Below are positions 762 through 16,752 of a stretch of 64,000 bases of DNA, in pieces. The position numbers and the translations under genes are program-made. The stretch is from an uncultured Candidatus Bathyarchaeia archaeon. Lineage in GTDB: Archaea > Thermoproteota > Bathyarchaeia > Bathyarchaeales > Bathyarchaeaceae. Positions within the stretch are counted from its first letter, which is position 1. Every line of letters starts with the position of its first letter. Location of the stretch: NCBI GenBank assembly GCA_964418675.1, contig CAYQMM010000003.1:152202-216201 (forward strand), written 5' to 3'. The notes beneath the pieces were generated by a model, which saw nothing but the letters and a program-made list of their open reading frames with translations, was not told where the DNA came from and did no database searches.

Positions 762-3700
762 TTAGTCAAAATTAATTTCAGCGTTAAGATAATTTCCAAA
801 TGATGATAGTATGTTGTTTTTTACTTCATCTATTGCCTCATATTTTTTGCAGATTTCTCTTTGTTTATCAATATCATATTCTCCATCATCTTTAATGGGT
901 ATTTTCAGGATAGCTTGTTTCAATATTGACAGTGTTACTCTTTTATTCCCTTCACCGATTGCATAATCTTTGAGAGTTTTCGATAAATAGCGGTGAATAT
1001 AACCAATGTCGATTTGGTCTTCATAGTCGCCTTTTAACAATAAAACGCCACAATGAGTTGTTATGCTAAATTTTCCATTCCTATAGAAGACAGTTCCAGC
1101 ATAAATCCCATCTGTTGTCCACGTAATACATTCAGAATCATAATCGTATGTGTCAATGCACCCAATTACTCCTTCATCAGTGGTTTTAGAAGAATAAACG
1201 GGATATGATCCGCTATGAGTTCTAATGTAATTCAACGTATATTTTGCAGAGCCTTTATGACACTTGAAAAACTTTGTTATGTTTTCCTCTACAAAGTTGT
1301 CTCCAATTTCAAAATCTACAGATGCCGATTCAATTTCATCCTTAATCATTGACAATTTGCTTTTTACTTCTTCAATCTGATCTATTTTTCCAAGAAGATA
1401 TGTCTGATCGTCTAAACTGTAGTTTCCCGTATTATCAACAGGTATAGGAATTGTCAAATCCCTGATTTTGGCAACACCACATTTATTGCTATATAAAAAA
1501 CCCGATGTCAAAAATTTTCTTTCAAGTTGCCATCGCAAATAATCTAAATTCATTAATTTCCCATACTCGTTCTTAAGAAGCATCACACGATGATCATCAT
1601 TTGTAGCAAATCTGTGTTTATGTACAAAAACCCTTCCAACATGAACGCCATTTCTGTTCCAACCTATACAGTCCTCATAGTATTTTATCCCCTGAATGTT
1701 ATCTCGAATTTGACCAATTATTGAGCTTTCATGTTTTGAGCAACCATGAACAGGAACGTCTCCATCATTTTCCCTACAAAACTTTCTTGTTAATTTAGTG
1801 TTGGTTGGTGGAAATTTAAACAAATCACCGATTTTTGCCTGTTTAAACTCTATCTTTTTTTGTGTTTTTTTTAAGGTTCTTAATTTTTCAACACTTTTAG
1901 AAAATACGTCACCTGTGTCTTCAATTTTTTCTATAAATTCGTCTAGTTCCAAAACTTCTGTTTCTTCTTCTATACCAAGATCGATTTTTTCCTCTTTTGT
2001 CCACCAATTATCAATATACCAATACTCCTCTTTGTCAAATCGTTCAATTGGTTGCAGTTTGCATCTTGGATCGCCAATTTCTTTTACTGGAAAAGTGTTT
2101 GGTGAGCCTTTATACGAATTGAATAAATCCTTTGCTTTTTCTAAGTCACTTTTTCCTTCTATTTCAAATCTATAGACATTTAATTGTTCACCAATGTTAC
2201 TTACTAAATAGGTGAATACTGGGAAGTCTTGTTCTTGTTTGGGATTATTCTTTTTTGTTATTCCTAGGATGAATGTTTTTTGTGGTGTATTAAAGAATGT
2301 TTTTGATGGTAAAGATATTATACAATTAACGAAACACTGTTCTCTAATATACTTCCTCAATTCTTTATTTTGTCTAACATTCAAGATGCTGTGAGGTATT
2401 ATTACAAATGCTCTGCCATTACGCCTTAAACTTCGTATTATCCATTCTAATGCTAATCCATCTACGCCTTTGCTACCTGTAGTATAGTAAGCTTGCAATC
2501 CTTCTGTTTTTATTTCTTCTTTTATTGAGGTAACGCCACTTGTTATGTATGGAGGATTTGTTAGGATAAGATCATATTTTTCAGCTTCGTTGGTTATGAT
2601 CCTGTTTAATGTTCCCAAATTTGACTCAGTTAAGAAGTGAAAAATACGATTAAAAAGTGCAGAGAACTCTTTCGTGATGTTTGGATACTTCTCTACAATA
2701 TCTGATAGGTAAATGAGAAGATTAGCTTTAGCAAGTATTATAAGACGTTCCTCATCACTGTCCGAACCTTTATCATAACCCTCGTAGGTTATTGTGGGTT
2801 CTATTTTCCCGTTTTTAGGAATAAAATCTTGCTTCCTAATGGGCTTTTGTATTGTTTCTGCTATGAAGCCACCTACACCACAAAAAGGATCGCATACCCG
2901 TGAACCCTCTGGGAGTTTCTCAACATCAGCCATATCTACAATGGCTCGAACAACTTTTCTAGGTGTGAAAAATTGTCCTAATCTACTCTTATCTGAGCTT
3001 TCTTTAAGAAATGTTTCAAAAAGCTTTGTCTTAAACTCTTTCTTGATATGCCTAAGTGTTGTAAAATTATCATATTTTTTTAGTGTACTTTTGAAAAGAT
3101 TGGCTTGGCTGAAGACAGGGTTACCACTTGCATCTACAAAAATAGTACCATTTATGATGGTTGTTTTATCTTTTCCTTCTGGGAATAGTTCTCTTATTTT
3201 CTTGCGTGTATTTATAGCGTAGTAATTAAGCACATCTTTGTTCTTGACTTTTTGAGCATACATACCATATACAGTTTTGAAGTCATTTGGAACTTTGAGA
3301 ACTTCAAGATCGCTAAGGAATTTAAAGATAAACAGTTCAACAACATTGTACAAGCATTTTTCAGGTTCTTTTCCAGTGTTGATATAAATGTCTTGCCATA
3401 CACCTTTAGCTAAACTTAGCGGATCGACGGTTTCAGTGGGGATTAGTGTAGAATTTTTCTCATTTACTGCCGATAATATTCTATCTACATAATCCAATGT
3501 ATTTTTTGTTGTCTCCGCTAACTTGTCAAAAATAGGCTCGGAAACATCTTGGATTACAAAAGGTTCACTTAAATCTTTTTTATCCTCATTCCTAATGATC
3601 GAATAACTACGTTCAACATTGTACTTGTCTCTGTATGTGTTATTCTTGTTTGATTGTCTTGGGTTTATCCAGATGAATAGTTGTCCATCGGTAATTACGC

Positions 3701-4010
3701 CCATTTTTGAATTTAGAACTTGACAAACATCGTTACATTGTTCTATAGCGCTTTTCTTTTGGGCATCAGTCCTAAACTCTGATGGTTGCTTATATTCTAC
3801 TACAGCGATTACGGTAATGTTTTCTTTGTTTTGCCTATTGACAAGTAAGCCGTCTGGTTTTCGTTGGGAATATCTGCCGTAATCAACATTGGGAATAATT
3901 CGATAATTTTTATACTGATTGAGCGTAGTGTCTTGGGTAGGAAAATATTCAAGATGTCCAATTTTGACACCCGCTTCCGTAAAACCCTTACTTATTAATT
4001 CTTCGCTCAT
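762..4010 (-). CDS. Single-polypeptide restriction-modification enzyme (Type IIB/IIG-like RMS fusion): N-terminal PD-(D/E)xK nuclease, gamma-class N6-adenine methyltransferase, and a C-terminal two-TRD specificity region
   Basis: The 1082-aa ORF carries PDGLL...VVEYK (nuclease), QFFTPRKV (motif X), DPFCGVGGF (motif I, AdoMet binding) and TNPPY (motif IV). About 460 aa at the C-terminus form two similar HsdS-like halves. Confidence 0.8.
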   Translation of the reverse strand: MSEELISKGFTEAGVKIGHLEYFPTQDTTLNQYKNYRIIPNVDYGRYSQRKPDGLLVNRQNKENITVIAVVEYKQPSEFRTDAQKKSAIEQCNDVCQVLNSKMGVITDGQLFIWINPRQSNKNNTYRDKYNVERSYSIIRNEDKKDLSEPFVIQDVSEPIFDKLAETTKNTLDYVDRILSAVNEKNSTLIPTETVDPLSLAKGVWQDIYINTGKEPEKCLYNVVELFIFKFLSDLEVLKVPNDFKTVYGMYAQKVKNKDVLNYYAINTRKKIRELFPEGKDKTTIINGTIFVDASGNPVFSQANLFKSTLKKYDNFTTLRHIKKEFKTKLFETFLKESSDKSRLGQFFTPRKVVRAIVDMADVEKLPEGSRVCDPFCGVGGFIAETIQKPIRKQDFIPKNGKIEPTITYEGYDKGSDSDEERLIILAKANLLIYLSDIVEKYPNITKEFSALFNRIFHFLTESNLGTLNRIITNEAEKYDLILTNPPYITSGVTSIKEEIKTEGLQAYYTTGSKGVDGLALEWIIRSLRRNGRAFVIIPHSILNVRQNKELRKYIREQCFVNCIISLPSKTFFNTPQKTFILGITKKNNPKQEQDFPVFTYLVSNIGEQLNVYRFEIEGKSDLEKAKDLFNSYKGSPNTFPVKEIGDPRCKLQPIERFDKEEYWYIDNWWTKEEKIDLGIEEETEVLELDEFIEKIEDTGDVFSKSVEKLRTLKKTQKKIEFKQAKIGDLFKFPPTNTKLTRKFCRENDGDVPVHGCSKHESSIIGQIRDNIQGIKYYEDCIGWNRNGVHVGRVFVHKHRFATNDDHRVMLLKNEYGKLMNLDYLRWQLERKFLTSGFLYSNKCGVAKIRDLTIPIPVDNTGNYSLDDQTYLLGKIDQIEEVKSKLSMIKDEIESASVDFEIGDNFVEENITKFFKCHKGSAKYTLNYIRTHSGSYPVYSSKTTDEGVIGCIDTYDYDSECITWTTDGIYAGTVFYRNGKFSITTHCGVLLLKGDYEDQIDIGYIHRYLSKTLKDYAIGEGNKRVTLSILKQAILKIPIKDDGEYDIDKQREICKKYEAIDEVKNNILSSFGNYLNAEINFD

Positions 4011-4160: not shown

Positions 4161-4613
4161 TTAACACCCTTTCCCATCCCGCAAGGAGTTAACAGAACCC
4201 GACTTCAGGCTCTTATTCTTCAAAGTCTCCAGATAGGCTGCCAACCCCTCTATGTCCTTGACATCATGTCCCACCAAACCGGATAATCTTCTCCAGAAGA
4301 GAAGATTGGGGGTAATTTTCATCCCTTCTAGGCAACGAGCCAAGCGGTGTGTCCAGTTTTTGCCCTGCCGGTCAAAGTCCAAGAGCAGGATGACTTTGCG
4401 TTCTCCGCTTTTTTCTATTTCTCCAACAACGTCGAGGAAGGATTTTCCCGAGGTTTTTGCCGAAATTATGTTGCCGGTTATTCCCAATCTGTTGAGGGTT
4501 TGGATGTCGTTTCTTCCCTCCACCACTATGGGAGTGCCGTTGCTTGCTTGCTTCTTCAGTCTTTCCAAAAGTTTATGGATTTCTTCAAGCCTCTTCTCCG
4601 TTTTCGTTGACAA
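4161..4613 (-). CDS. Small Toprim-domain protein (RNase M5/primase-like, COG1658-type)
   Basis: VVEGRNDIQTLNRLG...VILLLDFDRQG shows the Toprim E...DxD pattern in a 150-aa protein. Confidence 0.65.
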   Translation of the reverse strand: MSTKTEKRLEEIHKLLERLKKQASNGTPIVVEGRNDIQTLNRLGITGNIISAKTSGKSFLDVVGEIEKSGERKVILLLDFDRQGKNWTHRLARCLEGMKITPNLLFWRRLSGLVGHDVKDIEGLAAYLETLKNKSLKSGSVNSLRDGKGC

Positions 4614-5704: not shown

Positions 5705-5759
5705 GTATAGCGCCCTCGTTATCCTCTCATCTTATTCTACAAACTTAAAAGTTCTTATC

Positions 5760-5978
5760 GCGGGCGTTGTGTCCCACGTAACTAACTCTCACCCTCACAG
5801 TTGGAGCTAAGCGCTCTTCTCAGATGAGCTCTCTCAAACGTGGGTTGATTTGCCCGCGCCCACCGTGTCCCATGCCTGGGTAAACCCTCCGTCAACGGTA
5901 GATGAAAGTCACCATCCTCTGTCGGGTCCGTCTGCATGAGCCCATTAAGGTGCCGGCGGGATTATGCTCCAGCCCACC
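5760..5978. ncRNA. Unclassified structured-RNA candidate (or structured tyrS leader) between pheT and tyrS
   Basis: The 347-bp gap has no credible ORF and is visibly richer in G+C than its flanks. A long hairpin spans 5760-5857 (GCGGGC/GCCCGC plus CCCACGT 5773-5779 / ACGTGGG 5838-5844). A second domain is closed by CATGC 5871-5875 / GCATG 5934-5938 and contains three small hairpins. I could not fit SRP, RNase P or tRNA consensus motifs, and the strand is undetermined. Confidence 0.35.
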
Positions 5979-6051
5979 TATCATCGCAAAACAATAGTAC
6001 ACAGGCAAGAACATAAAACTTTTCCATTCACGAAAGATGAGCAGCATTTGA

Positions 6052-14155: not shown

Positions 14156-14280
14156 GGGGTTGCCAGCTTTCCCGGGTTCACGTGGCCGAAGACCACACTA
14201 GCACCAGGAACGGAGCGTGGTTTAACTTCTGAGTTCGGAATGGGATCAGGTGGGTCCCACGCCCTATGGCCGGCAACCCC
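14156..14280 (-). rRNA. rrf: 5S ribosomal RNA (stand-alone)
   Basis: The reverse strand reads GGGGUUGCCGGCCAUAGGGCGUGGGACCCACCUGAUCCCAUUCCGAACUCAGAAGUUAAACCACGCUCC...CCCGGGAAAGCUGGCAACCCC. The termini are complementary and the conserved CCGAAC...GAAGUUAA core is present. Confidence 0.92.
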
Positions 14281-16598: not shown

Positions 16599-16752
16599 TG
16601 GTCGGGCGGGCGGGATTTGAACCTGCGACAGTCCGGTTTCTGTACGCTTGATAGGCTGGGTGATGCCCACCACCGGGTAGGCGTCTACAGCGTCTCCGTC
16701 AGCTTGGAAGTCAAGCTGGCTCGGAAGCTCTACCAAGCTGAGCTACCGCCCG
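16599..16752 (-). tRNA. tRNA-Tyr(GUA) with two insertions in the anticodon arm (30 nt at 31/32 and 47 nt at the canonical 37/38 position); CCA is encoded
   Basis: The reverse strand reads CGGGCGG-UA-GCUC-AGCUUGGUA-GAGC-U-UCCGA-[30 nt, genome 16691-16720]-CUGUAG-[47 nt, 16638-16684]-A-CCGGA-CUGUC-GCAGG-UUCAAAU-CCCGC-CCGCCCG-A-CCA. C1:G72 plus A73 is the archaeal Tyr identity set. The anticodon GUA is at 16686-16688. Confidence 0.75.

Follow-up and report, generated by a model that had tools for sequence, protein, structure and literature searches.

The window analysed here is a stretch of 64,000 nucleotides (nt) from an uncultured Candidatus Bathyarchaeia archaeon (GenBank assembly GCA_964418675.1, contig CAYQMM010000003.1, positions 152,202 to 216,201 of the forward strand), and the element in question lies on its minus strand, in the spacer between two aminoacyl-tRNA synthetase genes, pheT and tyrS. 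Judged by its sequence conservation, this spacer holds an independent small-RNA gene and not a regulatory leader of tyrS, and the encoded RNA is best read as a box H/ACA guide small RNA (sRNA) with two modules, a reading to which we give a probability of roughly 0.8. The RNA is recognised only from its comparative structure and from the rules that define the class, and, while the class is well known, the family is new, invisible to Rfam and modestly novel in its architecture.

The small-RNA gene and its proposed H/ACA architecture

Gene order on the minus strand is trpS (10419-9307), pheS (9200-7695), pheT (7728-6052), the gap (6051-5705) and tyrS (5704-4619), with Pfam supporting each gene. 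At 347 bp the pheT-tyrS gap is unusual, because the other neighbours in the cluster overlap or sit 5-106 bp apart, and its G+C content is 0.58-0.59 at 5800-5949 versus 0.41-0.52 in the flanks. A sequence-only reading made before this analysis had singled out just such a G+C-rich, 347-bp spacer in a tightly packed minus-strand cluster, and the gene coordinates and base composition bear it out. The same reading erred in taking the only open reading frame (ORF) of the spacer for a spurious antisense one, since two short ORFs of 51 and 71 amino acids (aa) overlap the gap, both on the minus (sense) strand. Neither has a Pfam match, and the 51-aa ORF, the only one covered by the orthologue comparison, is disrupted by stops or frameshifts in nearly all orthologues.

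The best homologues of the window's TyrRS are 89-93% identical to it, the named ones belonging to Candidatus Bathyarchaeum or Bathyarchaeota, and a TyrRS profile scan supplied 80 Bathyarchaeia loci (L001-L080), one genome per species, for comparison, the genomes including CP070820.1, CP070679.1, CP070683.1, CP070730.1 and CP070791.1. The minus strand of the spacer matches 41 of the 80 loci by blastn, at 71-93% identity, and 44 with nhmmer and a covariance model; TyrRS protein identity in the genomes that carry spacer orthologues is 59-92%. In the matching genomes the element stands immediately downstream of pheT on the same strand, the exception being locus L031, where about 800 bp intervene. 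Directly upstream of tyrS, again on the same strand, it is found in the window and about 30 other genomes, and in ten genomes (L001, L002, L009, L012, L014, L015, L017, L018, L020 and L027) 1-2.5 kb of other DNA separates the two. About 36 loci are missing the element upstream of tyrS, and in many genomes a tyrS without it retains the conserved promoter segment TTTTAAGT. What travels with tyrS in genomes that have the element at another place is confined to some 50 nt at the end of the spacer (window 5756-5712, starting AACTTTTAAGT; spacer nt 296-340), a segment that we read as the tyrS TATA box and a short 5' untranslated region (UTR). The element is single-copy in the window by blastn, nhmmer and cmsearch, the covariance-model search also finding no further copy near tyrS in the other loci. 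Its position between pheT and tyrS is, on this gene-order evidence, a matter of conserved synteny and not of regulation.

The boundaries of the gene, and the two promoters that flank it, can be set out as follows, BRE standing for the transcription factor B recognition element.

6013-6025, minus strand: BRE/TATA promoter of the sRNA gene (GGAAAAG-TTTTAT), a conserved motif
5754-5989, minus strand: sRNA gene of ~235 nt, its ends inferred from conservation
5705-5753, minus strand: tyrS promoter (TTTTAAGT at 5750-5743) and short 5' UTR, staying with tyrS and outside the RNA

The motif RRAAA..TTTWAT occurs in all 39 well-aligned orthologues at -38..-27 from a conserved 5' GCGAUGA, including loci where the element is detached from pheT or tyrS, and it is read as an archaeal promoter, for which the 27-38 nt spacing is the expected one; the transcription start is placed by conservation. 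The conserved 5' sequence, (U)GCGAUGA, lies at window 5987-5981, and conservation stops at GCCCGCG-A-N-A (window 5765-5756), before the tyrS TATA box, the flanks beyond it diverging unless tyrS follows. Because the conserved 5' sequence and the 3' A-N-A bound it, the RNA is taken to be ~235 nt long, from 5989 to 5754 on the minus strand. The segment TTTTAAGT is kept only where tyrS follows, and a T-run within 5705-5753 may also serve to terminate the sRNA.

A structural model was obtained from RNAalifold, which gave most helices, was completed by hand and was tested on a MAFFT alignment of 39 sequences (A2). In A2, 94.2% of 2055 cells are standard pairs, versus 35-44% in controls with the partners slid by 1-3 columns; changes on both sides are seen in 21 of 53 pairs, in 114 cells versus 7-25 in the slid controls. 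None of 500 shuffles reaches the observed values on four of five measures, and 2/500 do so on the fifth, the count of further pair types. A second alignment (A3), in which three divergent members were added through a covariance model and which therefore leans towards the model, is 95.2% paired with 31/53 pairs compensated, the slid controls ranging over 35-47% paired across both alignments. At least one compensated pair is present in every helix, save for a single invariant G-C pair that closes a kink-turn (K-turn) in module B. Paired columns contain 232 G-U cells versus 50 A-C cells, which fixes the minus strand as the folding strand. The parts of the RNA, in 5' to 3' order, are these, PS1 and PS2 being the two pocket strands.

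5966-5987, minus strand: candidate 5' K-turn/K-loop-like element, GC-GAU-GA-(3-nt loop or small hairpin)-GA-GC
5955-5960, minus strand: outer helix H2, 5' strand CCCGCC, pairing with GGUGGG 5859-5864
5941-5950, minus strand: small hairpin Pb of 3 pairs, in the junction that links H2 to module A; compensation in 2 pairs, loop length variable
5866-5940, minus strand: H/ACA module A, made up of P1, pocket, P2, K-turn and ACA
5940-5934 and 5875-5869, minus strand: module A lower stem P1, CUCAUGC/GCAUGGG, followed directly by ACA at 5868-5866
5933-5928 and 5883-5876, minus strand: module A pocket, PS1 AGACGG and PS2 UUACCCAG
Within module A, minus strand: upper stem P2, ACCC/GGGU, continuing via non-canonical pairs to the K-turn
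5923-5918 and 5896-5888, minus strand: module A K-turn, 5' GACA-GA and 3' GUU-GA-CGGA, with an apical stem at 5917-5897
5859-5864, minus strand: outer helix H2, 3' strand GGUGGG; H5 starts directly after it
5852-5858, minus strand: outer helix H5, 5' strand CGCGGGC, pairing with 5759-5765 and enclosing module B
5770-5844, minus strand: H/ACA module B, made up of P1, pocket, P2, K-turn and ACA
5844-5838 and 5779-5773, minus strand: module B lower stem P1, CCCACGU/ACGUGGG, then ACA at 5772-5770
5837-5829 and 5787-5780, minus strand: module B pocket, PS1 UUGAGAGAG and PS2 AGUUAGUU
5828-5822 and 5794-5788, minus strand: module B upper stem P2, 7 bp, CUCAUCU/GGGUGAG
5821-5819 and 5799-5795, minus strand: module B K-turn, 5' GA-G and 3' (C-)UGU-GA, with an apical stem-loop at 5818-5800
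5759-5765, minus strand: outer helix H5, 3' strand GCCCGCG, pairing with 5852-5858
5756-5758, minus strand: 3'-terminal A-N-A box (AUA), directly after H5

Both outer helices are paired in 100% of cells. H2, which encloses Pb and module A, has 2-4 compensated pairs (A-U/G-U/G-C and C-G/U-A, for example), and H5 has 2-3, of the C-G/U-A kind. At the 5' end, conservation covers GAUGA and GAGC; C-G at the -1 pair never varies, and the -2 pair is G-C, G-U or A-U and is mismatched in two lineages; with this moderate support the 5' element is a candidate K-turn or K-loop. The terminal A-N-A is present in 39/39 orthologues, as ACA in 17, AUA in 16, AAA in 3 and AGA in 3. A reading in which H5 supplies the lower stem of the 3' hairpin and the terminal AUA its box was considered and rejected, the 5' loop strand being unconserved and no K-turn lying at the right distance; the inner helix with its internal ACA is preferred because it fits every rule of the class.

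Several pieces of this anatomy had been seen by eye on the DNA. Three helices of the sequence-only reading exist and carry compensatory changes in orthologues, namely GCGGGC/GCCCGC, which is H5, CCCACGT/ACGTGGG, which is P1 of module B, and CATGC/GCATG, which is P1 of module A. The direct repeat GTGTCCCA(C/T)G is likewise real, corresponding on the RNA strand to C(G/A)UGGGACAC, which in both modules comprises the lower stem's 3' strand together with the ACA box. Other proposals fared less well: the bases of the small hairpins GGGTAAACCC and CCGTCAACGG sit in upper stem, pocket and K-turn, and the pairs proposed for them are broken in orthologues; the GAGC...GCTC hairpin survives only as a partial alternative pairing (GAGC/GCUC), compensated in one lineage and broken in about five; and the second copy (5972) of the GCCCACC direct repeat falls inside a lineage-specific insertion. 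A comparison of orthologous spacers, of the kind that this reading had proposed, found conservation and compensatory changes, and the Rfam covariance search proposed alongside it returned only chance-level matches.

The case for the H/ACA class was judged by published rules (PMC7075261, PMC2377435, PMC11077068), among them the n+15 rule, by which the target U lies 14-16 nt from the ANA box (PMC11077068, PMC7075261), and a separation of 9-10 positions between the distal G:A pair and the upper-stem base (PMC7075261). Two hairpins with P1, pocket and P2 are present, and P1, P2 and the apical stems are all backed by compensatory changes. The trinucleotide that directly follows the lower stem is ACA in 39/39 orthologues for module A and ANA in 36/39 (ACA in 29) for module B. 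The n+15 spacing, measured as PS2 plus the 3' strand of P1, is exactly 15 nt in 39/39 for module A; for module B, 26 of the 39 orthologues have 15 nt and 11 have 16 nt, while 14 nt and 17 nt occur once each. Both modules contain the K-turn motif, with P2-GA-(C-stem) on the 5' strand and (C-stem)-NNU-GA-P2 on the 3' strand, with no variation in GA, UGA and the closing G-C (in module B, GAG, C and UGA), and the distal G:A pair falls 10 positions from the P2 base in module A and 9 in module B.

The pockets point in the same direction. The longest stretches without any variation in the alignment number four and coincide with the pocket strands, ACGG and ACCCA of module A and AGAGAG and GUUAG of module B, and the stems around them covary; the invariance holds even in the most divergent copies, L067, L078 and L080. 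Invariant pockets within covarying stems are the pattern expected when a conserved target constrains single-stranded guides. At gathering score, an Rfam search of the whole window gave no match for the spacer RNA, and because no covariance model reaches that score the RNA lies outside every curated Rfam family; at E <= 10, the spacer and three orthologues gave chance-level matches only (HgcG, sR49, sR2 and mir-379). The printed consensus of HgcG (Pab40) nonetheless agrees with module B in its layout and in how its K-turn is oriented, at a score no better than chance. Thus the suggestion that the spacer held a known RNA needing a covariance model was right as to an RNA gene of a known kind, box H/ACA, but no Rfam model matches it.

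Predicted 23S rRNA targets and alternative readings

In the large subunit, pseudouridylation is most conserved at helix 69 (H69) U1915/U1917 and at the UUU of the peptidyl transferase centre (PTC), and these are the sites at which the two modules are predicted to be directed. A source of 23S sequence was sought in a metagenome scan with a 16S primer site of Bathyarchaeia (Miscellaneous Crenarchaeotal Group, MCG), which gave 120 loci (L081-L200). In only one of the 120, L196, does a 23S gene follow the 16S, and its sequence breaks off near E. coli position 2390. Because L196 stops before the PTC, the PTC segment was taken from a plasmid-borne rRNA operon of Halomicrobium (L201), with E. coli numbering checked on rrlH. 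As a separate observation, many of the 120 loci extend more than 4 kb past the 16S gene, yet only L196 shows a downstream 23S; 16S and 23S may be unlinked in most of those organisms, or the loci may be too short.

Every U was scored as a potential target with a simple bipartite score and 200 shuffles. H69 of L196 reads GGGAGUAACUCUGACUCUCUCAAGG, and its helix 69 region GGGAGUAACUCUGACUCUCUCAAGGUAGCC. The 5' pocket strand of module B, UUGAGAGAG, matches CUCUCUCAA (E. coli 1920-1928) over 9 bp with perfect complementarity, and GUUA of the 3' strand pairs with UAAC (1911-1914). With these 4 + 9 bp, U1915 is the first base left unpaired; counted from the last guide base that pairs, the ACA box comes 14 nt later. 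H69 is the top site of module B in L196, with a score of 12 against 9.75 for the next, and none of 200 shuffles reaches 12. The 6 + 5 bp of module A are formed by ACCCAG with CUGGGU (E. coli 2579-2584) and by GACGG with CCGUC (2590-2594), and the PTC is its top site in the Halomicrobium operon. The base before ACCCA is A in four orthologues and would there pair with U2585, leaving U2586 as the first unpaired U. Pocket variants include xAACCCA for PS2 of module A, in L009, L012, L018 and L070, and, for PS1 of module B, AAGAGAG in L062 and L080, GAGAGAU in L045 and GAGAGAA in L074. H69 (U1915/U1917) is therefore put forward as the probable target of the 3' module, as the complementarity suggests, and the PTC UUU (U2584-2586) as a target of the 5' module with odds only somewhat better than even, the latter being raised above its weak statistics because sR-h45 of Haloferax volcanii, a proven guide, shares both sites.

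A working particle can be proposed from these parts. By analogy with established H/ACA biology, L7Ae would bind the K-turns, and Cbf5-Nop10-Gar1 would bind each lower stem with its ACA box. On H69, the 3' module would pair GUUA with U1911-C1914 and (UU)GAGAGAG with C1920-A1928, leaving U1915-A1919 unpaired, such that U1915, and possibly U1917 too, would enter the Cbf5 active site and be converted to pseudouridine. On the PTC, the 5' module would pair ACCCAG with C2579-U2584 and GACGG with C2590-C2594 and so present UUU 2584-2586, with U2586 the likeliest to be modified (or else U2585). More speculatively, the abutting helices H2 and H5, if stacked, might together with the 5' K-turn-like element hold both modules in one compact particle.

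Several observations weigh against a two-module guide or against its assigned targets. Folding of the single sequence is no better than that of shuffles (z = -1.2 for the minus strand, -1.6 for the plus strand), and because these values are unremarkable the structure seen by eye is no more than chance would give, and the comparative data decide; of the structured spacer claimed in the sequence-only reading, it is the comparative fold that is significant. The best H/ACA match in Rfam is HgcG at 8.4 bits and E = 6.3, and three orthologues are without an H/ACA match. The terminal, third ANA (39/39) is better conserved than the ANA of module B (36/39), and both ACA boxes, because each module is enclosed by its own outer helix (H2, H5), sit in junctions closed by that helix, an arrangement undescribed for known archaeal H/ACA RNAs. 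As for the targets, L196 is placed in Bathyarchaeia solely through a 16S primer site taken to be diagnostic; the PTC match of module A is not significant alone, 14/200 shuffles equalling its score in the Halomicrobium operon; five target nt are unpaired in both models versus the canonical two; and U2585 faces a U in most orthologues.

Some of these points would sit more comfortably with an H/ACA-like ribonucleoprotein (RNP) RNA with several K-turns that serves mainly for something other than site-specific pseudouridylation. Such an RNA could be a chaperone for the folding or processing of rRNA that base-pairs with 23S domains IV and V, or an L7Ae/Cbf5 scaffold with other targets such as tRNA. 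The snR30/U17 RNA base-pairs with 18S in such a processing or chaperone role. The two outer helices that enclose the ACA boxes, the third K-turn-like element and the third ANA box all suit a non-guide RNP, as do the five unpaired target nt predicted in both pockets and the lack of significance of the module A match taken alone. Yet we consider it improbable, since both modules obey the n+15 and K-turn spacing by which the Cbf5 active site receives a U, pseudouridines are already known at the predicted sites in H. volcanii, where a comparable double RNA guides them (PMC7075261), and a non-canonical unpaired UNUN is active in that organism (PMC7075261). Far less probable again is a divergent universal RNA, be it RNase P RNA, signal recognition particle (SRP) RNA or a long box C/D sRNA, that Rfam has missed. 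Such an RNA would have a length of 235 nt, long-range helices and K-turns, L7Ae being a partner of archaeal RNase P RNA as well; the 5' GCGAUGA resembles box C, and L080 gives weak, chance-level matches to sR49 and sR2; against this, no RNase P, SRP or C/D match was found at E <= 10 in a 551-nt search space, there is no terminal stem joining 5' and 3' ends and no box D with a guide, neither the CR-I/CR-V nor the helix-8 motifs were matched by eye, and the combination of ACA, spacing and pocket pattern is specific to H/ACA RNAs. Two such candidates were set aside individually. A by-eye resemblance to RNase P RNA (plus-strand GAUGAAAGUCACC to CR-I, minus-strand ACAC-GGUGGG to CR-V) has no model match and the wrong topology, and the G-U pairs fix the strand as minus; and for a box C/D sRNA, only the 5' element GCGAUGA...GA resembles a C/D K-turn, the Rfam matches are at chance level, and many orthologues have just 3 nt between the K-turn halves, which leaves no room for a guide. 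The earlier dismissal of SRP RNA, RNase P RNA, tRNA and T-box was accordingly correct, the C/D-like resemblance being confined to the 5' K-turn element.

The remaining explanations would tie the spacer to one of its neighbouring genes. A cis-acting leader of tyrS (a riboswitch, a T-box-like element or a protein-binding attenuator) that senses tyrosine or tRNA-Tyr, as the sequence-only reading had entertained, would account for a highly structured element that, in the window and about 30 other genomes, immediately precedes tyrS and shares its strand. It is refuted, however, by synteny and by the element's own promoter: in ten genomes the element adjoins pheT at 1-2.5 kb from tyrS, many tyrS genes without an upstream element keep the TTTTAAGT segment, the conserved 3' end precedes the tyrS TATA box, and Rfam yields no T-box or riboswitch match. 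Because the element is separable from tyrS, and only the last ~50 nt of the spacer follow that gene, a leader is excluded as far as gene order can exclude it, and we assign it a very small residual probability. Smaller still is the chance that the spacer is the 3' UTR or terminator of a pheS-pheT operon, or conserved DNA without function. The element is always downstream of pheT on the same strand, but it has its own BRE/TATA promoter, stands ~800 bp from pheT in L031, and combines 31 compensated pairs with invariant single-stranded blocks, far more than a terminator needs; a scan for intrinsic terminators found no terminator-like site at the locus, the sigma-70 and terminator models of that scan being bacterial and thus irrelevant for an archaeon. 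A two-module box H/ACA guide remains the preferred reading of the spacer RNA.

Neighbouring genes and related loci

Five of the tyrS loci from metagenome-assembled genomes (MAGs) of Bathyarchaeia share a separate peculiarity. In L035, L042, L044 and L071 (at about 3130-3163) and in L056 (at about 2622-2655), the tyrS frame is broken after codon G43, within the HIGH motif (ECSG|LMHIG), by a frame-shifting insert of 32-35 nt. The insert and its flanks resemble a bulge-helix-bulge, with a 4-bp helix CUGG/CCAG, 3-nt bulges ACA and AAU and an inner hairpin GUGAG...CUCAC, and excising AGUGAG...CCAGAA restores G43-L44-M45 of TyrRS. Recognised by eye, this insert is a candidate intron of the tRNA-endonuclease type in the mRNA of an aminoacyl-tRNA synthetase.

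Within the window, a 150-aa Toprim-domain protein (4161-4613, minus strand) is encoded 5 nt downstream of tyrS, and this pairing is kept in most of the 80 loci. Beyond it, a 1082-aa ORF (762-4010, minus strand) joins N6_Mtase, Eco57I-type methylase and type I specificity (Methylase_S) domains, and looks like a single-chain restriction-modification or methylase-specificity protein. An Rfam tRNA match of 38.5 bits spans 151 nt at 16602-16752 (minus strand) and is absent from the ARAGORN output; a tRNA gene interrupted by at least one intron is the probable explanation. A solitary 5S rRNA gene lies at 14158-14277 (minus strand), and no 16S or 23S gene was found in the 64-kb window.

Comparison with known systems

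A literature search found no paper linking Bathyarchaeia with H/ACA RNAs, and Rfam lists none from this group. The spacer RNA would thus be the first H/ACA candidate, by the literature searched and Rfam, for a very abundant and mostly uncultured group of sediment archaea, and a tempting amino-acid- or tRNA-sensing leader in an archaeal aminoacyl-tRNA synthetase cluster gives way to a concrete annotation. The covariance model (R1) could be used to annotate the gene across Bathyarchaeia genomes.

Multi-hairpin H/ACA sRNAs are known from Pyrococcus (Pab40/Pf7, which is HgcG, RF00064; Pab35; Pab105), with one to three motifs per RNA (PMC2377435). The HgcG consensus aligns with module B in K-turn orientation and in having a 7-bp upper stem, at a score (8.4 bits versus a gathering score of 77) that is chance level, and Pab21 offers a parallel in its added C/D-type motif. 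In Pyrococcus, however, the hairpins are simply concatenated, without enclosing helices, and the PTC pseudouridine of P. abyssi (2603) is without a known guide. The enclosing-helix architecture of the Bathyarchaeia RNA would be a small structural novelty for H/ACA RNP biology. Closer in lineage, and from the nearest relatives that have been studied, are the crenarchaeal H/ACA RNAs of Sulfolobus islandicus and Pyrobaculum, from the same phylum-level neighbourhood, Thermoproteota, whose classic members sR115 and sR435 share the module design of the Bathyarchaeia RNA; every crenarchaeal RNA described so far consists of one hairpin, and in most cases this is atypical, having neither lower stem nor ACA (PMC11077068). 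The P. furiosus proteins, for their part, work with heterologous guides (PMC11077068). The Bathyarchaeia RNA, by contrast, has two classic modules, and would widen the known range of multi-hairpin H/ACA RNAs.

Among eukaryotes, snR191/U19 is a two-hairpin H/ACA snoRNA for two H69 pseudouridines, and so resembles the Bathyarchaeia RNA both in hairpin number and in the conserved H69 uridines concerned. The eukaryotic RNAs differ in using one hairpin per uridine, in having H and ACA boxes and in the absence of K-turns, whereas here one hairpin is predicted to serve H69 and the other the PTC.

The closest parallel is sR-h45 of Haloferax volcanii, a double stem-loop H/ACA RNA of ~200 nt (PMC7075261), at positions 2499846-2500055 of that chromosome. 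Its 5' stem-loop guides pseudouridine (Psi) 2605, the third U after 3-methyluridine (m3U) 2603 and U2604, with A2606 and U2612 downstream, and its 3' stem-loop guides Psi1940/Psi1942 with an atypical unpaired UNUN (PMC7075261); the latter pair corresponds to E. coli 1915/1917 (PMC5029457). Because the published context is GGGUUUAGACCGU, Psi2605 corresponds to E. coli U2586. The two sources differ on this point, PMC5029457, from 2016, equating Psi2605 with E. coli 2572 and the context in the 2020 paper, PMC7075261 (m3U2603-U2612), matching E. coli U2584-U2593, hence U2586; the context is followed here. A structured 56-nt spacer joins the stem-loops and has been proposed to bring two RNPs together (PMC7075261).

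By its published description, then, sR-h45 matches the Bathyarchaeia RNA in size class (~200 versus ~235 nt), in carrying two K-turn H/ACA stem-loops in one RNA, and in the order of its targets, the 5' hairpin addressing the third U of GGGUUUAGACC in the PTC and the 3' hairpin H69 1915/1917, as predicted for ours. Both RNAs, ours by prediction, leave more than two nt unpaired on the H69 target, and both have a structured region joining the hairpins and count an AUA variant among their boxes. They differ in host, Halobacteria versus Bathyarchaeia/Thermoproteota, and in architecture: sR-h45 has its 56-nt spacer with a possible pseudoknot, whereas each Bathyarchaeia module lies inside its own covarying outer helix, which puts its ACA box in a junction instead of a free hinge or tail, and the Bathyarchaeia RNA has in addition the 5' K-turn-like element and the terminal ANA. 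Stem-loop 1 (SL1) of sR-h45 also uses the canonical unpaired UN, and the module A model leaves extra nt unpaired.

A bolder view, which we regard as doubtful, is that the Bathyarchaeia RNA is more than two guides in tandem. H2/H5 and the third K-turn could lock the two Cbf5 modules into a rigid particle, with the ACA boxes buried and a third, invariant ANA at the terminus; simultaneous pairing with domain IV (H69) and domain V (PTC) of 23S rRNA could make the particle an assembly chaperone that joins both functional centres; and the targets and order shared with sR-h45 could mean that the two are the same ancient gene, predating the split between Euryarchaeota and Thermoproteota. Regardless of that view, the service of the same pair of targets by one RNA in Haloferax as well hints at an old dual guide for H69 and the PTC.

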